A stretch of 64,000 bases of DNA, from contig CASFBF010000001.1 of NCBI GenBank assembly GCA_949292985.1, positions 23,031 to 87,030 on the forward strand. The letters run 5' to 3'. Of this stretch, positions 421 through 60,353 are shown piece by piece. The notes under the pieces were generated by a model. It was not told the origin of the DNA. It did not search any database and was given only the letters and a program-made list of their open reading frames with translations. The DNA is from an uncultured Bacillota bacterium (GTDB lineage: Bacteria > Bacillota > Clostridia > Christensenellales > UBA1242). The translations under genes were made by a program, and so were the position numbers. Position 1 is the first letter of the stretch, and every line of letters begins with the position of its first letter.

Positions 421-1725
421 ATGAACAAAAAACTTAAAGGTAAAAAGGTTTTGGTATATGGCCTCGGTGGCAGTGGTCAAGCCGCATGCAAACTTCTGCA
501 CACATTTGGTGCTTGCGTGAGTGTGTATGACGAGGATAAAAAATTCCGAAATCTTTTTTGTTATGTTGATGAGCCATTGTTTCACAAGTATGATTTGGTT
601 GTGGTTAGCCCTGGTGTTAAAGTGCTTGGCAACTCGTTAATCTCTGGGCTTAGAGCAAAGAAAACAAATATTCTAAGTGAAATAGACCTTGGCAGTATTT
701 TTAGTTTGGGAAAATTGATTGCTGTAACAGGCACAAATGGCAAAACCACAACTTGCTCACTTTTGGGTAAAATTTTTGATGAGGCCGGCAAAAAGAATTT
801 TGTATGTGGCAATATTGGGTTGCCAATAAGTTCTATTGCCCTAAAAACAGATAAAAAAAGTTTTGTTATTTGCGAAACTTCAAATTTTCAACTTGAATTA
901 TCAAGATTGTTCGCTCCCAGCATTGCTTGTGTTCTAAACATCGAGCCCGACCACTTAGATAGGCACGAAACTTTTGATGAATACAAGCGAGTTAAGTCTA
1001 AAATCTTTCAAAATTTTTCCGCTTTAAAACATGCAGTTATAAATTTGGATGATGAGGAAGCCAGAGAAATTGCCCCTCAAAAAAAGTGTGCGTATTACAG
1101 TTTTAATCCGCTTAAAAAGGGGGTTTGTGTAAGAAACGGTTGCATTTATAGTGGCAAAGCACGAATTATAAGTTTAGACGAAATTCCGCTTATAGGATTA
1201 AAAAACATATCCAATGTTATGGCTGCAATCAGCGTGGCATTGTTATGCAAAATTAAAATAAAACACATTAGAAATGCTATTATGTCTTTTTCACCGCCAG
1301 CGCATAGATTGGAGTTCGTAGATGAAATAAACGGTGTCACATTTATAGATGATTCAAAATCTACAAACATTGCTTGTGTAAAAATGGCAATTGAAAGTTT
1401 AAATTCAAAAAATTTGATTTTGATGCTGGGTGGGCAAAATAAAGGCTTGGATTTTAGCGAATTGTTTTCACTTTCTCCAAACTTAAAAAAGGTTATATGC
1501 TTTGGTGAGGCGGGTGAAGAAATTGACACAGTAGCCAAAAAATATGGCTACGATAGTCAAAGTTTTGGCACTTTAAAAGAAGCCACATATTTTGCAAAGT
1601 CAACTGCGAAAAGTGGAGACACTGTGCTTTTAAGCCCAGGTTGCACAAGTTTTGATGAGTTTTCTTCATATGCAGTTCGTGGACAAATTTTTTCGGAGTT
1701 GGTGAGAAGTGAGGACCAAAACTAA
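421..1725 (+). CDS. murD: UDP-N-acetylmuramoylalanine--D-glutamate ligase MurD
   Basis: N-terminal GLGGSG Rossmann motif and the Mur ligase P-loop GTNGKTTT. A GGGGGAAG RBS precedes the ATG. The gene sits between mraY and ftsW. Confidence 0.95.
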   Translation: MNKKLKGKKVLVYGLGGSGQAACKLLHTFGACVSVYDEDKKFRNLFCYVDEPLFHKYDLVVVSPGVKVLGNSLISGLRAKKTNILSEIDLGSIFSLGKLIAVTGTNGKTTTCSLLGKIFDEAGKKNFVCGNIGLPISSIALKTDKKSFVICETSNFQLELSRLFAPSIACVLNIEPDHLDRHETFDEYKRVKSKIFQNFSALKHAVINLDDEEAREIAPQKKCAYYSFNPLKKGVCVRNGCIYSGKARIISLDEIPLIGLKNISNVMAAISVALLCKIKIKHIRNAIMSFSPPAHRLEFVDEINGVTFIDDSKSTNIACVKMAIESLNSKNLILMLGGQNKGLDFSELFSLSPNLKKVICFGEAGEEIDTVAKKYGYDSQSFGTLKEATYFAKSTAKSGDTVLLSPGCTSFDEFSSYAVRGQIFSELVRSEDQN

Positions 1726-2830
1726 TTATATTTTAATAGCTTGCATAGTTTTAGGTTTAACTGCTTTTGGCGCAGTTATGGTTTATTCCGCAAGTTCTTA
1801 TTCTGCCGCTTATCACTTTAACAACGAGTATTTCTTTTTGTATAAGCAAATTTTTGGAATTGTGATAGGTGCTGTTCTAATGATTTTGCTTTCCTTTTAC
1901 GACTATCACAAACTTAAAAAATATAAGTGGCTTTTTGTGATTATAACTGTTATTTTACTTGTTTTGGTTTTTATACCTGGAATAGGGACAGAAAGTTATG
2001 GGGCAAAAAGGTGGCTTTCAATTTTTGGATTTTCCATTCAACCTTCCGAAGTTGCTAAATTCGCTTTGGTTATTTTTTGTGCAGCATATTTAAGTGAAAA
2101 TCATGAAAAAATAAAATCTTTTAAAACGCTTTTGCCGGTTTTGGGTGTGGCGGGGGTGTTCTGCCTGCTTGTTATCTTAGAGCCTTCCATGTCGGTTACT
2201 ATGTGCCTTGCTTTTATCACACTTTTTATGTTGATTGCGGGTGGGATAAGTAAGAAACATACCATAATGTTTTCCATTCCTGCGGCTGCTGCGGTTCCAG
2301 TTTTAATAGCGCTTGAACCTTACAGGCTTAAAAGATTGTTTGCTTTCATAAATCCTTGGGCATCACCACAAGGTGAGGGATTTCAACTTATTCAATCGCT
2401 CTATTCACTCGGCTCAGGCGGTTGGTTTGGGGTTGGACTTTTTAATTCAAGGCAAAAATATCTTTTTCTTCCATTTGCTGAAAGCGACTTTATTTTTGCA
2501 GTTATGGGTGAAGAGTTGGGACTTATTGGCTGTTTAATTTTCATGTTTGTTATGGCGGGTTTGGTATTTTTGCTAATTAAAATTGCACTTAATGCCTCAG
2601 ACCGTTTTGGAGCATTATTGGCCAGTGGTATTGGGTTTATAATTGCCATTCAAACTATTTTGAATATTGCAGTAGTAACGGGTTCGATCCCGCCAACGGG
2701 ACTTCCTCTTCCATTTATTTCAAGTGGCGGAACATCTGTTATGATGTTTATGGCGGGGATTGGAATCTGTTTAAATGTACTAAGGCAAAGTAAGGTTAAG
2801 GACAAAATATCTTTTAATGTGGCGAACTAA
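1709..2830 (+). CDS. ftsW: SEDS-family peptidoglycan glycosyltransferase FtsW/SpoVE
   Basis: Multi-TM protein with the motifs GSGGWFGVGL and LPFISSGGTS. The GTG start overlaps the murD end. It occupies the classic mraY-murD-spoVE position. Confidence 0.9.
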   Translation: MRTKTNYILIACIVLGLTAFGAVMVYSASSYSAAYHFNNEYFFLYKQIFGIVIGAVLMILLSFYDYHKLKKYKWLFVIITVILLVLVFIPGIGTESYGAKRWLSIFGFSIQPSEVAKFALVIFCAAYLSENHEKIKSFKTLLPVLGVAGVFCLLVILEPSMSVTMCLAFITLFMLIAGGISKKHTIMFSIPAAAAVPVLIALEPYRLKRLFAFINPWASPQGEGFQLIQSLYSLGSGGWFGVGLFNSRQKYLFLPFAESDFIFAVMGEELGLIGCLIFMFVMAGLVFLLIKIALNASDRFGALLASGIGFIIAIQTILNIAVVTGSIPPTGLPLPFISSGGTSVMMFMAGIGICLNVLRQSKVKDKISFNVAN

Positions 2831-2931
2831 ATAATTAAAAAAAATTATGAAAAATCATAAAGCGAAGTTTGCAAATTTTAATGTTTGACTTTAAGATTAA
2901 CATATGATATACTGTCTTACAGGAGAAAGTG

Positions 2932-3708
2932 ATGAAAGAATTTGAAATAATTAAAAAAGCCATAAAAAATGCAGGAAAAAAAATTTTTTTAAAAGGAAGT
3001 AAAGAAATAAATTTAAAAGGTGAATACGATTATTTTACAAACACTGATTTGAATTGTGAAAAATACTTGATTTCAAAGATAAAGAAATATTTCCCCGAAG
3101 ATGAAATTTTGAGTGAAGAAACTTGTAATACAACAAAGTTACAAAACAGAGTTTGGATTATAGATCCAATAGATGGAACTCACAATTATGCAAATGGATT
3201 AAAAGAATGTGGGATACAAATCGCTTTTTTTGATAAAAATGAAGTGAAGTTTTCTGTGATTTATTTGCCTTATTATAATGAATTATATTCTTGTGTTAAA
3301 GGCGATGGAGTTCGTTTAAATGGGCGTGAAATTAAAATAATGAGAGATATACCGCTTGGCAGATCTTTAATTGAGATGTGTACATTAACACACGAAGAAA
3401 AAGTTAAGAAAATTTCACTTAACTGTTTAAACGAAATACATAAAAAGATATTGGAAGTGCGCATTGTAGGCTGTGGTTGTTGTGAATTTATAAATATGAT
3501 AAACAAGAATTTTGGTGCCTATGTTTTAATAAGGCAAGAAATTTGTAAATGGGATTTGTTGCCAGGGCTTTTTATGTGCCAAGAAAGCAATTTAAGTACA
3601 TCCAATAAGATTTACAAAGGTTTTGAATATTGCATTGTCGCAAATAATAAAACAATTTTAAATTATATTGAAAGAAAGGTAAGGAAATGTATTTTAGAAG
3701 TGAATTAG
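2932..3708 (+). CDS. inositol monophosphatase (SuhB/CysQ) family protein
   Basis: WIIDPIDGTHNY metal-binding motif. An AGGAGA RBS lies 8 nt upstream of the ATG, and a TTGACT-17-TATACT promoter lies near 2885-2913. Confidence 0.8.
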   Translation: MKEFEIIKKAIKNAGKKIFLKGSKEINLKGEYDYFTNTDLNCEKYLISKIKKYFPEDEILSEETCNTTKLQNRVWIIDPIDGTHNYANGLKECGIQIAFFDKNEVKFSVIYLPYYNELYSCVKGDGVRLNGREIKIMRDIPLGRSLIEMCTLTHEEKVKKISLNCLNEIHKKILEVRIVGCGCCEFINMINKNFGAYVLIRQEICKWDLLPGLFMCQESNLSTSNKIYKGFEYCIVANNKTILNYIERKVRKCILEVN

Positions 3709-18159: not shown

Positions 18160-18180
18160 CGCAAATGTTTGCGCTTTTTT
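18159..18180 (+). terminator. intrinsic terminator after plsY
   Basis: GCGCAAATGTTTGCGC followed by TTTTTT. Confidence 0.65.
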
Positions 18181-18254
18181 ATTATAAAAATATCGAATAT
18201 TTTGTTATAAATAACCTCTTTAAAGCATATTTTAGAATATCTTTGGAGGTCAAA

Positions 18255-19733
18255 ATGGAAAAATATGAAATCTATGACGACATTAAAACCCGCACTAATG
18301 GCGAGATTTATGTCGGCGTTGTTGGCCCAGTTAGAGTTGGAAAATCAACTTTTATCACCGAATTTATGAAAAAACTTGTGCTTCCAAATATAACGGGCAA
18401 ATACCCAAAAGAACGGGCAATTGATGAACTTCCACAATCAGCAGATGGTAAAACCATCATGACCACTCAGCCAAAATTTGTTCCAAACGAGGCTGTTAAA
18501 ATTTGCGTGAATGACAAAGTGGACATGAAGGTTAGGCTTATTGATTGTGTGGGATATTTAGTGTCGGGGGCAATGGGACACATTGAAAATAATGCTCCTA
18601 GAAAGGTTAAAACTCCTTGGTCAGATGAAGAAATGCCTTTTGAAGAAGCAGCCGAACTTGGCACAAAAAAAGTCATGAGAGAACATTCCACTGTTGGTGT
18701 GGTTGTAACAACTGACGGTTCGGTTACAGACATTCCAAGAGCCAACTATGTTGAAGCAGAAGAAAGAGTTGTGCAAGAAATGAAAGAAAGCAATAAACCT
18801 TTCGTAATTGCATTAAACTGCAATTCGCCTGCTTCAAACGAAGCAAAAAAACTTGCTTCATCTTTGGAAGAAAAATATGAAGTGCCAGTTATTGCATTAA
18901 ATGCACAGGAACTTAAAGAAAGTGATATTGATAAAGTTTTTGAAAAACTTTTATATGAATTCCCAGTAACATCTATCAAACTTAAAATGCCTAAATGGTT
19001 GCAAGCGCTTTCTTTTGATGACGAAATCATTCAAGAAATTGCAAGTGAAGTTCAATCTTTTGCAGAGGGAATGAGCAAACTTAGCGATGTTGACAAGTCT
19101 AAACTTGTTTTCACAGAAAGCGAAGCCTTTGACCCTATCACATTCTCAAATATTGAAATGGGTGATGGGACTGTAAAATTCAGTGTTATTCCAAAAGAGG
19201 GGTTGTTCTATAAAGTTCTTTCAAAAGAATGTGGTTATCAAATTAACGACGATTTTGAACTTATCGGTTATATCAAAGAACTTGCCGTTGCTAAACTTGA
19301 ATATGATAAATTGAAAACAGCACTTGAACAAGTTAAAGAAACAGGTTATGGCATTGTTGCACCAAGACAAGATGAATTTGAACTTGAAGAGCCAGAAGTT
19401 ATCAGACAAGGTTCTAAGTTTGGCGTTAAAATTAAAGCAAGCGCACCAAGTTTGCATATACTCAGGGTAGATGTAAACACCGAAGTAACGCCACTTGTTG
19501 GAACAGAAGAACAAAGCAGAGAAGTTGTAAGCGATCTTTTAAGTCAAATTCAAGAATGCCCAGAATCAATATGGGAAACAAATTTGCTTGGCAAAAGTTT
19601 GTCTTCGCTTATTGGCGACAATATCAATTCAAAAATTATTATGATGCCAGTTGATGCTCAAAGAAAAATGCGCAAGACTCTTGGCAGAATAATAAATGAG
19701 GGCAGAGGAGGAATTATCTGCATATTGTTATAA
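18255..19733 (+). CDS. spoIVA: stage IV sporulation protein A (SpoIVA)
   Basis: MEKYEIYDDIKTRTNGEIYVGVVGPVRVGKSTF (Walker A) and the overall length are typical of SpoIVA. A GGAGG RBS precedes the ATG at 18255. Confidence 0.95.
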   Translation: MEKYEIYDDIKTRTNGEIYVGVVGPVRVGKSTFITEFMKKLVLPNITGKYPKERAIDELPQSADGKTIMTTQPKFVPNEAVKICVNDKVDMKVRLIDCVGYLVSGAMGHIENNAPRKVKTPWSDEEMPFEEAAELGTKKVMREHSTVGVVVTTDGSVTDIPRANYVEAEERVVQEMKESNKPFVIALNCNSPASNEAKKLASSLEEKYEVPVIALNAQELKESDIDKVFEKLLYEFPVTSIKLKMPKWLQALSFDDEIIQEIASEVQSFAEGMSKLSDVDKSKLVFTESEAFDPITFSNIEMGDGTVKFSVIPKEGLFYKVLSKECGYQINDDFELIGYIKELAVAKLEYDKLKTALEQVKETGYGIVAPRQDEFELEEPEVIRQGSKFGVKIKASAPSLHILRVDVNTEVTPLVGTEEQSREVVSDLLSQIQECPESIWETNLLGKSLSSLIGDNINSKIIMMPVDAQRKMRKTLGRIINEGRGGIICILL

Positions 19734-19734
19734 C

Positions 19735-19763
19735 AAAAAACCGAACTTAATGTTCGGTTTTTT
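19735..19763. terminator. bidirectional intrinsic terminator
   Basis: AAAAAA-CCGAAC-ttaat-GTTCGG-TTTTTT. Confidence 0.8.
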
Positions 19764-20443
19764 CATCTACTTAACAATTTATTTAGTTCGTAATGTGATG
19801 AATCTAAATCATAAAACTTTTGTTTAAATTGTGGGTTGTTATCCATTTCTTCTTGTGAAGCAACAAGTTTTGCTTTTATGTGTAGTGCCAAATGCTTTTG
19901 AGAAGCGCTAAGCAATGATGCTCGGCAATATACATCTTCTTCTTGTTTCACCCAGTTTAATTTTTTAGCCATACTTTCTGACACCGAAACTTTAACTGCA
20001 CTTTCATGATAAATTCTTCCATAATTTACAAGCATTGTGCTTATGCTATGCCCAGATGGCAGGGATATTGGCATTAAGTTTGCTTTTACTTTTCCAGTTA
20101 TAAGGCAAATGTCGCTAAATTCTGGCAAAAATTTATTTAGGTAAAGTTTTTGGTAAACAACATAACTTGAATATTTATCACCATTTAATCTCTGTGTTTT
20201 GTAAGAGCCATAAACTATTACATTGTCGCCTATTTTAGTTTCATTCATTATTTCGTCTTTATGTGTTTCGCTGACTATGACTGGAATTAAATTAGGCGAG
20301 CGTTTGCTTCCAGAAACATTTACAAAAAACAAATAATAGTTTGTGTTATGTACAACCGAAGTGTAATATACGGTTGGATAGTCAACCAATGTGCCAGTTA
20401 TTCTAACTCTGTTTGTTGGTTTATCAAATGCGAAGTTATCCAT
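19763..20443 (-). CDS. hypothetical protein, possibly a tandem OB-fold (SSB-like) architecture
   Basis: Clean 226-aa frame. Both halves start with an OB-like strand pattern (NRVRITGTLVDYP and SDICLITGKVKANL). No family was recognised. Confidence 0.55.
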   Translation of the reverse strand: MDNFAFDKPTNRVRITGTLVDYPTVYYTSVVHNTNYYLFFVNVSGSKRSPNLIPVIVSETHKDEIMNETKIGDNVIVYGSYKTQRLNGDKYSSYVVYQKLYLNKFLPEFSDICLITGKVKANLMPISLPSGHSISTMLVNYGRIYHESAVKVSVSESMAKKLNWVKQEEDVYCRASLLSASQKHLALHIKAKLVASQEEMDNNPQFKQKFYDLDSSHYELNKLLSR

Positions 20444-20550
20444 ATTTTTCCCTTTAATTTAGTTTTGTAGCAGTTTGATTTTATAACAATTTGGAATGTT
20501 AGTCAATACTGTTTTTAACATTTTATGAAATGCTTGCATATAAAATTGGC

Positions 20551-20652
20551 ATGAAAAAAGAAGAAGAAAAACAATTTAAAATCATTTGCATCAAAGCGCC
20601 TAAATGGATGCGGCCTTTTTTAAAGCCTTTTGTTAAAAAAGGCGAAAAATAG
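20551..20652 (+). CDS. candidate SpoVM-like sporulation micro-protein (33 aa)
   Basis: MKKEEEKQFKIICIKAPKWMRPFLKPFVKKGEK. The core IK-x-PK-[FW]-[LM] resembles B. subtilis SpoVM (YTIKLPKFLGG). It is convergent with rpmB next to yloU/yloV, as spoVM is in Bacillus. There is no SD; a CATATAAA -10-like box lies 7 nt upstream. Confidence 0.4.
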   Translation: MKKEEEKQFKIICIKAPKWMRPFLKPFVKKGEK

Positions 20653-20749
20653 GCGAGCGCTTACATGTGCCTGCTTTGCAGGCAACATGTTGCACCTGCG
20701 CTTTTGTGCGCAGGTGCTTGTCCCGTCTGGGACGGGACAAGCGCTCGCC
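20652..20749. repeat. GC-rich nested-palindrome element A (closing stem plus three hairpins, four-way junction)
   Basis: Closing stem GGCGAGCGC/GCGCTCGCC. Inner hairpins span 20663-20690, 20692-20717 and 20718-20740. The element starts at the TAG stop codon and is about 60 percent G+C by hand count. Confidence 0.7.
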
Positions 20750-20793
20750 GTTGTTATATCTCTTTGGCAAAAGGCGTATAATTACATATAAAC

Positions 20794-20816
20794 AAAAAAA
20801 CCTCCATAATGGAGGT
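20794..20816 (-). terminator. intrinsic terminator of rpmB
   Basis: The minus strand reads ACCTCC-attat-GGAGGT followed by TTTTTTT. Confidence 0.7.
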
Positions 20817-20833: not shown

Positions 20834-21019
20834 TTATTTTGATTTTCTAGCGGTTTTAATGCATTTTGTGCAAGCCTTAACTTTTGTAGGTTTTCCATTA
20901 ACATCAATGGTTGTTTCTTGCAAGTTAAGTTCAAACGTTCTGTTAGTTTTATTTTCAGCGTGGCTAACTTTTTTACCTGTCATTTTTCCACGACCACAGA
21001 TTTCACAAACTCTTGACAT
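20834..21019 (-). CDS. rpmB: 50S ribosomal protein L28
   Basis: [34 protein letters not shown] is canonical L28. A GGAGG RBS is present. The longer ORF in the track is an upstream extension. Confidence 0.95.
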
Positions 21020-21191
21020 ATTTTCACCTCCTATTAGGACTTTTTCAGCATGGCAAGTATAACATAAAACAAAACTAAAATCAACAAAAATAACAAAATT
21101 TTTAACAAACATTTTAAAAGGATATTAAATTACTTGAAAATTTTTTTTGTTTATTGTAAGATAGTATAGACTGAATTTAAGGAGTTGTAGT

Positions 21192-23186: not shown

Positions 23187-23211
23187 AAAAGCGCTTGAAC
23201 GGCGCTTTTTT
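23187..23211 (+). terminator. intrinsic terminator after fakA
   Basis: AAAAGCGC-ttgaacg-GCGCTTTTTT. Confidence 0.7.
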
Positions 23212-23247
23212 GTTTGGATAAAACACTTTTTATGATAAAATATCACT

Positions 23248-58912: not shown

Positions 58913-59360
58913 ACTGTTAAACCAAAAGGTTTTTGATGAGGCACTTAAACTTACAGACAATGAAGTTGAAGGTGTTACGGTTGGGATTACCTTTGTTTCA
59001 AAGGCAAAAATTAAAAAATTGAATTTGACAAGACGCGGTATAAATAAAGTTACCGATGTTCTTTCTTTTCCTATGTTTGAAACTAAGAAAAAGGGAACTC
59101 TTAAAAATTTTATAAATGAAGCAGACCCACTTACAAAAGAACTTGAAATAGGGGATATAGTAATTTGTTTGCCAGTAGCAAAAAAACAGGCAAAACAGTA
59201 TAAACATTCCTTAAATAGAGAAATTAACTTTTTGGCATTGCATGGTTTTTTGCATTTATTGGGCTACGACCACTTAAATGCTCGTCAAGAAAAAGAGATG
59301 TATTCATTGGCTGAAAAAGTATTAACAAGCCTTTCTATTACAAGAGGTGAACATGTATAA
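58887..59360 (+). CDS. ybeY: rRNA maturation RNase YbeY
   Basis: Zinc motif HGFLHLLGYDH. A GAAGGAG RBS precedes the ATG at 58887. Confidence 0.93.
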   Translation: MKIYTNKPKLLNQKVFDEALKLTDNEVEGVTVGITFVSKAKIKKLNLTRRGINKVTDVLSFPMFETKKKGTLKNFINEADPLTKELEIGDIVICLPVAKKQAKQYKHSLNREINFLALHGFLHLLGYDHLNARQEKEMYSLAEKVLTSLSITRGEHV

Positions 59361-60198
59361 ATTTGGATATGTCGCTATTTTGGGTAAGCCAAACGCAGGG
59401 AAAAGCACTTTAATTAACAGATTGGTTGGCATGAGACTCGCAATTATTTCGGATAAGCCACAAACAACTCGTGACAATATTTTGGCAATTGTTAATGGCA
59501 AAAATTATCAACTTGTGCTGATTGACACCCCTGGAATACATAAAGCAACTTCTCATCTTGATAAATTCATGATGAAAAATGTGCGCACAGCCAAAGCAGG
59601 CGCAGATGTTGTGGTGTATTTGCTGGATAGTTCTCTTCAACCTGATCCGCAAGAATTAGAGCATATCGCTAAAATGAAAAAAGATGGGCTTAATGTGATT
59701 GTGGCAGGCTCAAAAAGCGATAAGAAAAAATTTGAATTTGACTGTGATTTATATTTTTCAGCAGTTACAGGAGAAAATGTTTCAAATTTGATTGATAAAA
59801 TACTTGAATTTCTTCCATCTTCAAAAAAGAAAAACTTTTTATATGGGCAAGATGAAGTAACTGATAAACCTGTAAAGTTTATTGTGGGGGAGTATGTGCG
59901 TGAAGGGGTGTTGAGGATACTTAAAAAAGAAGTGCCTCACGGCGTTGCAGTTGTTACAACCGCTTTTGAAGAAAAGGCAAACATAGTTAATATAGAAACA
60001 GAAATTGTTTGTGAAAAACAATCTCATAAAGGAATTATTATTGGCAAAGGTGGGGAAACCTTAAAAAAGATAGGAATGTATGCAAGAGAACAATGCGAAG
60101 AACTTTTAGGCAAAAAAGTGATGTTGAAAATTTTTGTTAAAGTTGAAGAAGGCTGGAAAGATAAACCTAACAAACTTACCGATTTGGGTTATAACTAG
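59353..60198 (+). CDS. era: GTPase Era
   Basis: GKPNAGKSTLIN and DTPG motifs plus a C-terminal KH domain (IIGKGGETLKKIG). Confidence 0.95.
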   Translation: MYKFGYVAILGKPNAGKSTLINRLVGMRLAIISDKPQTTRDNILAIVNGKNYQLVLIDTPGIHKATSHLDKFMMKNVRTAKAGADVVVYLLDSSLQPDPQELEHIAKMKKDGLNVIVAGSKSDKKKFEFDCDLYFSAVTGENVSNLIDKILEFLPSSKKKNFLYGQDEVTDKPVKFIVGEYVREGVLRILKKEVPHGVAVVTTAFEEKANIVNIETEIVCEKQSHKGIIIGKGGETLKKIGMYAREQCEELLGKKVMLKIFVKVEEGWKDKPNKLTDLGYN

Positions 60199-60282
60199 GC
60201 GAGCAAGGCGCGTGCGAAGCACGCATGCCCCGTTAGGGGCAGAAAATTTTTGCGAGATAGCGCAAAAATTTGCCTTGCTCGC
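60199..60282. repeat. GC-rich nested-palindrome element B (closing stem plus three hairpins), followed by a T-run
   Basis: Closing stem GCGAGCAAGGC/GCCTTGCTCGC (11 bp). Hairpins are GCGTGC-gaa-GCACGC, TGCCCC-gtta-GGGGCA and AAATTTTTGCG-agatag-CGCAAAAATTT. It starts right after the era TAG, and T9 follows at 60284-60292. Confidence 0.7.
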
Positions 60283-60353
60283 ATTTTTTTTTGTGACAAT
60301 TCACCGATTTTTGAAATATAGTGTAACAAGACTACTACGCGAAAGAGGAAACA

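Follow-up and report, generated by a model that had tools for sequence, protein, structure and literature searches.

Two nested palindromes at gene 3' ends in an uncultured clostridial genome: members of a three-hairpin family and candidate branched terminators

Why does a 98-nt palindrome of 62% G+C lie between two genes in a stretch of DNA that is 35% G+C overall, and what might it do there? The palindrome, which we call element A, is found in a 64,000-nt stretch of contig CASFBF010000001.1 (assembly GCA_949292985.1) from an uncultured bacterium of the Clostridia; we refer to this whole stretch as the window. The original prediction, made by a model from the letters of the window, described A as a stack of three hairpins enclosed by a closing stem, and pointed to a second element, B, built in the same way. 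The sequence, coordinates and fold of A are as claimed:

20652-20749, no strand assigned: element A, a four-way junction of 98 bases between spoVM and rpmB
20652-20661 / 20740-20749: closing stem of A, 10 bp
20663-20690: hairpin 1 of A, 12 bp with one bulged A
20692-20717: hairpin 2 of A, 10 bp with a 6-nt loop
20719-20739: hairpin 3 of A, 9 bp

The RNA minimum-free-energy fold of positions 20640-20765 reaches -75.4 kcal/mol (z = -10.6), compared with -41.6 +/- 3.2 kcal/mol for 200 dinucleotide shuffles of the region, none of which was as stable. The fold has three junction nucleotides and no G.U pairs, and an identical four-way junction is returned by folding with DNA parameters and by folding the minus strand. 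Among 80-nt segments across the 64 kb, A also shares the top G+C value. Three more assemblies of this species, obtained independently (L126-L128), carry an identical A, which is therefore not an assembly artefact. The 131-aa open reading frame that spans it was rightly considered spurious: it crosses the palindromes and runs antisense to rpmB. ARAGORN detected neither a tRNA nor a tmRNA at A or B, in agreement with the claim that A is not a tRNA, and Rfam searches, at the gathering threshold and at E <= 10, gave only noise, with no already described family for either element. An exact 39-mer of A had no match in 185,579 species genomes, and nothing in phage and plasmid collections matched A by blastn. 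The GGCGAGC heptamer has five matches against an expectation of 1.8, and at least as many turn up in 3 of 100 shuffles; by itself, the heptamer is weak evidence for anything beyond chance. Its third and fifth matches, at 20295 and 54067, fall within coding sequence and were set aside as chance.

The genes and signals around A are as follows:

18165-19733: spoIVA, adjacent to the spoVM homologue
19763-20443, minus strand: the gene beyond A
20551-20652, plus strand: spoVM homologue, 33 aa, MKKEEEKQFKIICIKAPKWMRPFLKPFVKKGEK, with its TAG stop at 20650-20652
20635-20651, minus strand: U-tract UAUUUUUCGCCUUUUUU, which follows the closing stem of A without a gap and, read on the plus strand, is the A-rich end of spoVM
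20790-20816, minus strand: primary rpmB terminator, a hairpin at 20800-20816 and a minus-strand T-run
20834-21022, minus strand: rpmB (ribosomal protein L28; Pfam PF00830, E = 1.9e-20), convergent to spoVM

The micro-ORF that the original prediction noted upstream of A is a genuine gene rather than an incidental reading frame; it encodes an N-extended homologue of SpoVM and is convergent to rpmB. Gene callers place its start at 20530, which gives 40 aa. The gene is kept in 42 of 81 related loci, with changes that are mostly synonymous and at third positions, and the motif IICIKAPKW(M/L) is seen at the same number of loci. One relative (L075) encodes the canonical 26-aa form, MRIIVIKAPKFLRGLFKLIFNRQLAK, and the motif I-K-x-P-K-(F/W)-(L/M) agrees with the confirmed sequence of Bacillus subtilis SpoVM. 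Pro9 of SpoVM is invariant, and the proximity of spoVM to rpmB is a conserved feature (PMC5607322). SpoVM is typically about 26 aa long, has Pro9 within I-K-x-P-K-F-L and has its gene beside rpmB in spore-forming bacteria, and the micro-ORF fits this description. Pfam and NCBIfam gave no match to the micro-ORF and BLASTP produced no alignment with B. subtilis SpoVM, because the peptide is short; its identity was settled by the motif, the bridging homologue and synteny.

Element B has the same plan as A, as claimed, and lies immediately 3' of era:

59347-60198, plus strand: era (GTPase Era), whose TAG stop at 60196-60198 abuts B
60199-60282, plus strand: element B, with an 11-bp closing stem at 60199-60209 / 60272-60282
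60210-60224, 60226-60241 and 60244-60271: the three hairpins of B, the first of the GCGTGC type and the third of the AAAATTTTTGCG type
60283-60292, plus strand: A+T9 tract right after the closing stem of B, the putative U-tract of the era terminator

The hairpins of B have 6, 6 and 11 bp, and its fold has a z score of -6.9. Both elements were said to begin at a TAG stop. In the window, G20652 is both the first base of A and the G of the spoVM TAG, while B begins one base past the G of the era TAG (G60198, which is unpaired). This arrangement is not conserved: the stops of orthologous genes are TAA or TGA, and the element starts 4-17 nt past the stop in A orthologues and 5 nt past it in L082, which carries a B orthologue.

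Relatives bear out the claim that the architecture is conserved while the sequence diverges. A is present in the window, in L001-L003, L005 (two copies), L006, L010 and L066, and in L141-L146, and B has orthologues in L082 and L086; the closure and three hairpins are kept, the hairpin sequences differ, and the changes are compensated. For example, the closing stem at orthologous sites is GGCGAGCGC/GCGCTCGCC, GGCAAGCGC/GCGCTTGCC or GGCGGGCGC/GCGCCCGCC. We read the compensation in the closing stem of A straight from the sequences. MAFFT alignments of the A orthologues, and of A with an AT-rich family, were structurally meaningless and were discarded, so we make no claim of column-wise covariation for A. 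At the same time, A is absent from L004, L007-L009, L011-L013 and L065, and at least four lineages of its own genus have lost it; B is missing from most of the relatives sampled (L081, L083-L085 and L087-L091), including the closest, L081. The elements are therefore dispensable, and relatives that lack them have simple hairpins at these sites. Empty and filled orthologous sites both exist, the empty ones being too diverged for clean boundaries.

When about 1 Mb of related DNA was screened for this structure, 23 three-branch matches emerged, compared with one in three block shuffles (0.33 per shuffle); chance favours two-branch structures, of which those three shuffles contained seven. The resulting family comprises 29 elements in 13 locus families. 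All have a closing stem of 6-14 bp, exactly three near-perfect Watson-Crick hairpins and 0-8 junction nucleotides, and the plan holds over 31-78% G+C and lengths of 80-155 nt. Only 30 of 1173 pairs (2.6%) are G.U, and there is no strand bias (24 plus versus 17 minus). Nearly all of the elements lie at a stop codon or up to about 100 nt 3' of it, most of them within about 20 nt. A common sequence core, made up of a AAAATTTT hairpin, a variable hairpin and a GCNNGC hairpin, is found in B and in six further locus families, whereas A resembles these elements only in architecture and in its GGCGAGC closure. In the family alignment, 87.9% of cells are paired, compared with 35-60% when the partners are slid, and both sides have changed in 17 of 29 pairs. 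A covariance model (R1), which runs from the closure through the AAAATTTT-type, variable and GCNNGC-type hairpins back to the closure, matches B, one of its training members, on the minus strand with 56.4 bits, and recovers two members outside the training set, L068 (45 bits, E = 1e-5) and L061 (28 bits). R1 has no match to A at E <= 10, and A cannot be aligned with other members. Four further R1 matches in the window (14591, 24051, 46545 and 54478) are ordinary hairpins or have no fold, and were not counted as family. Copy number appears low, with two in the 64-kb window and up to two per 8 kb in some low-G+C relatives, and the best-conserved module occurs in 12 stretches among the 185,579 species genomes. 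The further copies and the compensatory changes on which the original prediction staked its case are thus both found. No description of such elements came up when the literature was searched for terminators of branched or cloverleaf form and for nested palindromes, and the best reading of A and B is that they belong to a previously undescribed, clade-specific intergenic palindromic family of uncultured gut Clostridia.

What might the two copies in the window do? We propose, with a probability of roughly 0.5, that A and B come from a seemingly low-copy family of REP/BOX-like palindromes and that both serve, in RNA, as branched intrinsic terminators that also cap the 3' end. During transcription, the inner three hairpins would fold first and draw the two arms of the closing stem close to each other; this G+C-rich stem would then form right before the U-tract and release the transcript, as an ordinary terminator stem does, and the compact junction left behind may guard the 3' end against exonucleases. 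B would terminate era on the plus strand. On the minus strand, A would be a second, tandem terminator behind the simple one of rpmB; it would keep rpmB read-through out of both the opposed spoVM and the following minus-strand gene (19763-20443). For plus-strand transcripts, A would be the structured 3'-UTR of the very short spoVM mRNA.

This proposal draws on several likenesses to intrinsic terminators, which include tandem and bidirectional ones. A G+C-rich stem followed by a U-tract is found for B on the era strand (11-bp closure, then A+U9) and for A on the rpmB strand (10-bp closure, then UAUUUUUCGCCUUUUUU). The minus-strand tail of A, UAUUUUUC..., satisfies the usual 5-of-8 U rule, and the A-run directly 5' of the A closure occurs in six of seven A lineages, and in one of them, L010, it is not part of a coding sequence; the plus-strand tail, GUUGUUAU, is marginal and unconserved, satisfying the rule in the window and L001 only. 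In position, too, the elements resemble terminators, lying shortly 3' of a stop codon and before the promoter that follows. At the era locus, the U-tract and the downstream zupT promoter region, which in the window has a promoter-like site, GTGACA-18-TATAGT, at 60293-60322, are homologous behind B (in the window and L082) and behind a simple AT-rich hairpin (in L081, a sister species), indicating that B takes the hairpin slot of the era terminator. The original prediction had noted, correctly, that rpmB has its own simple terminator (20800-20816), which also satisfies the tail rule on the plus strand and is therefore bidirectional; its use of that terminator to dismiss such a role for A does not hold, given that the conserved A-run is a U-tract on the rpmB strand. 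That a good rpmB terminator is already present does count against a terminator role for A.

The elements differ from standard terminators in two respects. Whereas standard models allow a loop of 3-8 nt, the "loop" here is 60-130 nt long, and the closing stems of A and B enclose three helices; a consensus terminator scanner flagged neither element as a whole. In addition, most members outside the window (C, D, E, F, I, K, L, M and L086) lack a U-tract on either side, so termination cannot be the general function of the family. The scarcity of G.U pairs and the lack of strand bias are atypical of RNAs selected as RNA, and fit a DNA-level element equally well. We note that acting as a terminator or cap offers no reason for three hairpins over one or two. 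A bolder reading, which we hold only tentatively, is that the family is a distinct, undescribed class of bacterial 3'-end element in which selection acts on architecture rather than sequence; the junction would be read by a specific protein or act as an RNA knot resistant to exonucleases and helicases, and would be spread and kept perfect by a copying of DNA palindromes that requires no classical transposase.

Among the alternatives, one that we consider unlikely is that the elements are selfish or neutral palindromic DNA, either non-autonomous repeats of the REP, BOX or MITE kind or by-products of template switching in terminator regions, which would be functionless, kept by palindrome self-repair and tolerated only at terminators, with U-tracts that belong to the host terminators. 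Such DNA would account for a sequence core common to non-orthologous loci and to different genera, for the presence/absence polymorphism and repeated loss at the A and B sites, for the near absence of G.U pairs and of strand asymmetry, and for the missing U-tracts of most members. Moreover, B runs opposite to the orientation of the family consensus, which suggests insertion in either orientation. On the other hand, orthologues are more alike than paralogues, implying long vertical inheritance, and neither decay nor random template switching would keep the three-hairpin plan over its range of composition and length; a 62% G+C element in a 35% G+C genome also opposes mutational bias. Copy number appears low, as described above, and although the closing stem amounts to a terminal inverted repeat, no direct repeat flanks any copy. 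With no target-site duplication, no sign of high copy number and no transposase or other mobile-element gene among the six window proteins that were profiled, the suggestion in the original prediction of a cruciform recognized by a recombinase or transposase is unsupported.

REP/BIME sequences of Enterobacteria and Pseudomonas are likewise extragenic palindromes at gene 3' ends that form multi-hairpin mosaics, often lie within 15 nt of a stop codon, vary in presence among relatives and are credited with shielding upstream mRNA against 3' exonucleases. However, none of the 29 elements has a GT(A/G)G head, their hairpin sequences vary by locus, and they appear to be low-copy, whereas REP sequences number tens to hundreds per genome; a REP is a short, imperfect single palindrome of conserved sequence, and the elements described here are defined by a closed four-way junction rather than by a sequence consensus. 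BOX elements of Streptococcus pneumoniae and Correia elements of Neisseria are modular, about 100-150 nt long, with paired ends and inner hairpins, and lie in intergenic positions from which they can affect termination and RNA stability; they are high-copy and near-identical within a genome, with target-site duplications in the case of Correia, by contrast with the few copies, strongly diverged hairpins and lack of duplication seen here. The G+C clusters and double-hairpin elements of fungal mitochondria are also G+C-rich nested palindromes in A+T-rich spacers, of variable presence and, like the elements here, conserved in architecture above sequence. They differ in that they are organellar, evidently mobile (into genes as well), and have two hairpins and no closing stem. 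Two identities offered in the original prediction, a complex terminator or structured 3'-UTR and a REP/BIME- or MITE-like repeat, are each partly right; MITE and REP, like the attC site and the hairpin ribozyme, each miss a defining feature.

Loops are inverted in two orthologue or paralogue pairs: the hairpin 3 loop is TTGAAAA in one L005 copy (L005a) and TTTTCAA in the other (L005b), and the hairpin 1 loop is CGAG in L023 and CTCG in L036. Loop inversion between close relatives is part of the signature of template switching (Monttinen and Loytynoja, 2022; PMC8794818), and both cases agree with it, which suggests DNA-level template switching. Template-switch hairpins share with our elements perfect stems, one-step compensatory changes and loop inversion; template switching is a mutational mechanism rather than an element class, and does not predict a fixed three-hairpin plan (PMC8794818). 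We infer that template switching within the palindrome, or arm-to-arm conversion, may keep pairing near-perfect while turning hairpin sequence over fast, and that this process would act under selection for stability and architecture. The loop inversions speak both for branched terminators maintained in this way and for functionless palindromic DNA.

It is improbable, in our view, that the elements are instead binding sites for a structure-specific protein, with the junction, as extruded DNA or as RNA, being the putative ligand of an HU-like, RuvA-like or RNase III-like factor. A site of this kind would explain why three hairpins are kept while sequence varies freely, and why the three-branch plan is invariant over such wide ranges of size and composition. 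The helices are of about one turn each, with junctions of 0-3 nt in most copies, such that coaxial stacking is possible, and the AAAATTTT module is conserved beside the closure. Nonetheless, the elements have no linked gene that is a candidate partner, an OB-fold gene being a neighbour of A but of neither B nor the other element families, and many relatives dispense with the element.

We consider it more doubtful still that the elements modulate translation termination, with a very stable helix 0-15 nt past the stop stalling the terminating ribosome and cutting the output of the upstream gene. Liang, Rudd and Deutscher are said to have reported in 2015 that stop-proximal REP sequences in Escherichia coli lower upstream output, and in A, B, C, D and F the distance from the stop to the start of the closure is -1 to 17 nt. 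Across orthologues and families, however, the distance ranges from 0 to 97 nt, exceeding 30 nt in E, K and L117; the identity of the stop codon varies; and stop proximity is equally expected of any terminator. Recoding of the stop by a PYLIS-like element after UAG was rejected because stop type and spacing vary and there is no coding sequence downstream, and an integron attC site was rejected because neither end has a GTTRRRY core and the neighbours are the core genes spoVM, rpmB and era. Lastly, it is very improbable that the elements are small non-coding RNA genes in their own right, or ribozymes: the structure is strong and conserved, with covariation, and the natural hairpin ribozyme is likewise a four-way junction, but we found no dedicated promoter (the sole nearby plus-strand promoter serves spoVM), the helices are perfect and offer neither conserved internal loops nor an unpaired core as a catalytic or ligand site, Rfam gives nothing, and the hairpin sequences are not conserved.

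As a by-product, this analysis annotates an N-extended SpoVM in a clade where profile libraries overlook it. The elements also show, on a small scale and in nature, how hairpins remain perfect while their loops invert and one-step compensation takes place, which bears on how structured RNAs originate. If A and B are indeed branched terminators and 3'-end caps, terminator finders and RNA-family libraries are missing a branched class of such elements, and the family, with its 31%-78% G+C and always three hairpins, would be a natural series in which to ask what a four-way junction is worth for termination or RNA stability. Such elements would then stand in for ordinary hairpins in a large branch of uncultured gut Clostridia.

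Re-reading the DNA gave exact agreement with the original prediction on both the sequence of element A, a 98-nt palindromic element, and its coordinates (20652-20749). Its RNA fold is predicted at -75.4 kcal/mol, compared with -41.6 +/- 3.2 for shuffled sequences (z = -10.6; 0 of 200 shuffles equal), and the same four-way junction is obtained with DNA parameters and by folding the opposite strand. A 10-bp closing stem encloses hairpins of 12, 10 and 9 bp, with three junction nucleotides and no G.U pairs; G+C content is 62%, versus 35% for the window, and the element holds the joint highest 80-nt G+C value in the 64 kb. The sequence is unchanged in three more independent assemblies of the same species (L126-L128). 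Element B (60199-60282), placed between era and a ZIP-family transporter gene, has the same plan: its closure is 11 bp long and encloses hairpins of 6, 6 and 11 bp (z = -6.9). Neither element contains a tRNA or matches an Rfam family even at E <= 10. The observation of element A is correct and non-random; as shown below, the interpretation first attached to it was partly right.

The window is part of an ENA metagenome scaffold from an uncultured, spore-forming, low-G+C gut Clostridium. Around element A one passes in turn spoIVA (+), the gene of a 226-aa putative OB-fold protein (-), a micro-ORF (+), element A itself, a simple hairpin terminator, rpmB (-), asp23 (+) and fakA (+). The features closest to element A are as follows.

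20506-20478, minus strand: candidate promoter of the next minus-strand gene, TTGACT-17-TAAAAT
20551-20652, plus strand: spoVM homologue, 33 aa, N-terminally extended
20800-20816: rpmB terminator, bidirectional hairpin

The micro-ORF is a real gene, a SpoVM homologue conserved in related loci; this places element A between spoVM and rpmB, which are transcribed towards each other. The product from the ATG at 20551 is MKKEEEKQFKIICIKAPKWMRPFLKPFVKKGEK; gene callers place the start at 20530 (40 aa), and Pfam and NCBIfam profiles miss the gene. It is kept in 42 of 81 related loci, with changes mostly at third positions, and the 26-aa form in L075 (MRIIVIKAPKFLRGLFKLIFNRQLAK) is a bridge to Bacillus subtilis SpoVM (MKFYTIKLPKFLGGIVRAMLGSFRKD). 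For SpoVM, an invariant proline and a conserved gene location close to rpmB have both been described (PMC5607322). No Shine-Dalgarno sequence is visible upstream of the ATG, which lies about 7 nt beyond the end of a -10-like CATATAAA, so the spoVM mRNA may be leaderless. Farther upstream is a AGTCAATA box, conserved in all close relatives. The 226-aa protein (19763-20443, minus strand) has a weak, sub-threshold SSB/OB-fold match (PF00436, E = 2.6e-4, 21.4 bits versus a cutoff of 26); its gene is transcribed divergently from spoVM, and its position is conserved within the genus. Between element A and the rpmB terminator is a 13-mer, AAAGGCGTATAAT (20770-20782), conserved in L001, nearly so in L003 and absent from L002, which contains a TATAAT box with no -35 box at the proper spacing.

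Our comparison covered 80 fakA-anchored and 45 era-anchored loci from relatives, all MAGs labelled Clostridia, Christensenella or Catabacter. The closure and three hairpins of element A recur in L001-L003, L005 (two copies), L006, L066, L010 and L141-146. Hairpins 1 and 2 vary in sequence between loci and the closing stem carries compensated changes (GGCGAGCGC/GCGCTCGCC, GGCAAGCGC/GCGCTTGCC and GGCGGGCGC/GCGCCCGCC; L006 has a G.T intermediate), bearing out the proposal that the same architecture persists despite divergent sequence. The start on a TAG does not characterise the element, since the adjoining stop codon is TAG, TAA or TGA depending on the locus, and the gap between them is 0-17 nt in the A and B families and up to 97 nt elsewhere; the first G of element A just completes a stop that is TAA in relatives. 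Element A is absent from L004, L007-9, L011-13 and L065, where AT-rich sequence or a plain long hairpin follows spoVM instead. On a FakA tree its presence falls in three clades, two of which share CGGGACAAGCGCTCGCC, with absences interleaved, and this suggests that it is ancestral and was then lost at least four times. Among orthologues of element B, L082 has the closure AGGCAAAGC, an unchanged third hairpin and a retained U-tract, and L086 is 155 nt long (-131 kcal/mol); L081, L083-85 and L087-91 lack the element and have ordinary hairpin terminators.

In L005, the OB-fold gene and element A are duplicated together, along with the promoter region and terminator (513-3260); spoVM has been lost from the copy nearer to rpmB, which still has its element (3161-3248). 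Three-hairpin elements of unrelated sequence are found in the spoIVA-rpmB interval of more distant genera (L020 2780-2893, between spoIVA and spoVM; L036 2977-3061, with no spoVM detected), and this interval seems to be a recurrent home for them.

A structural screen of about 1.06 Mb of related loci, requiring a perfect 7-bp closure and an interior folding into at least two top-level hairpins, gave 23 three-branch and 11 two-branch matches, the latter mostly long and in coding DNA; three block shuffles together gave one and seven, respectively. With later finds, the family comprises 29 elements in 13 locus families, all 29 with three branches (closure 6-14 bp, junction 0-8 nt, size 80-155 nt, G+C 31%-78%). 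G.U pairs are few (30 of 1173) and without strand bias (24 plus versus 17 minus). Wherever the upstream gene is identifiable, elements start shortly 3' of its stop codon. Seven locus families have a common sequence core in the same orientation (element B as the reverse complement), running from a purine-rich closure through a AAAATTTT..AAAATTTT hairpin, a variable hairpin and a GCNNGC hairpin back to the closure. In the core alignment 87.9% of cells are paired, versus 35-60% with slid partners, and both sides have changed in 17 of 29 pairs. R1, a covariance model built from this alignment, detects members outside its training set, L068 with 45 bits and, at lower scores, L061, L025 and L035; element B is the only member it finds in the window. 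Because neither R1 nor the alignment recovers element A, we assign A to the family by architecture, position and the GGCGAGC closure common to B, not by detectable homology. The family is low-copy: across 185,579 species genomes, 12 stretches contain its best-conserved module, and all clostridial matches except L133 are inside a three-hairpin element.

In the hairpin adjoining the closing stem, both outer arms consist of the self-complementary octamer AAAATTTT (columns 14-21 and 35-42 of the family alignment A4; for example, window 60244-60271 and L023 784-809). All 11 aligned elements, which represent six locus families, have the same central six bases (AAATTT), with variation confined to the outer two positions. 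The octamer may be what is left of a bidirectional terminator with an A-tract and a T-tract, or may serve as a site of DNA bending or protein binding. Repeats were also seen in two relatives: in L061 (5775-5873) a tandem repeat, GACCGCACCAACCAAGCCC, starts directly after the three-hairpin element and reaches the end of the fetched locus, and in L001 (5641-5760), 3' of fakA, a long imperfect hairpin precedes GGGCTCGCC, present twice as a direct repeat, which reads as the GGCGAGC closure motif in reverse complement with one additional C. At the corresponding place in the window there is a plain terminator (23190-23212).

Within the family, stems pair almost perfectly, few intermediates are seen and loops can be inverted. 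Inversion of the hairpin 3 loop (TTGAAAA versus TTTTCAA) and one-base loop changes distinguish the two L005 copies, and inversion of the hairpin 1 loop (CGAG versus CTCG) distinguishes the orthologues L023 and L036. These are signatures of replication template switching within hairpins (PMC8794818), which could account for the lasting perfect pairing; it gives no explanation for keeping three hairpins.

Element B has A+U9 directly after its closing stem. It occupies the hairpin slot of the era terminator, because a homologous U-tract and downstream promoter region follow a plain hairpin in L081 and element B in L082. On its own, the segment 60226-60252, made up of hairpin 2 of element B and the U-rich 5' arm of its hairpin 3 (GAAAAUUUUU), is flagged as terminator-like, as in L082; this is a hint that an older simple terminator was the starting point around which the element grew by palindromisation. 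For element A, an A-run lies directly 5' of the closure in six of seven lineages, including L010, where it is outside coding sequence, so on the minus strand the closing stem is followed by UAUUUUUCGCCUUUUUU; on the plus strand, a U-rich tail is limited to the window and L001. Judging from this anatomy, the most economical reading is that element A would act as a second, tandem terminator for rpmB read-through, would shield spoVM from antisense transcription and insulate the promoter of the next minus-strand gene, and would also serve as a structured 3'-UTR of the tiny spoVM mRNA.

The family-wide role cannot be termination as such, because most members outside the window have no U-tract on either side. 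The position of these members agrees with a cap that protects the 3' end from exonucleases, the role suggested for REP elements, and also with a tolerated selfish palindrome; either may fit. A junction-specific protein with the four-way junction as its putative ligand would explain the number three, although nothing else supports it. A DNA-level or mobile element is kept alive by the near absence of G.U pairs, the inverted orientation of element B, the repeated losses and the modules common to unrelated loci. The evidence is against a simple MITE or REP model, given the lack of target-site duplications, the low copy number, the long vertical persistence and a three-branch plan strictly conserved across composition and size. 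Five further readings are either improbable or excluded: an effect on translation termination, an independent ncRNA, a ribozyme, an attC site and stop-codon recoding.

We propose that elements A and B are best described as branched four-way-junction terminators and 3'-end elements, belonging to a low-copy, structurally defined palindromic family. Our literature search found no description of this three-hairpin family, which is of the same general type as REP, BIME and BOX elements and as ordinary terminators. It would be more notable should a dedicated factor turn out to recognise the fixed three-hairpin plan.
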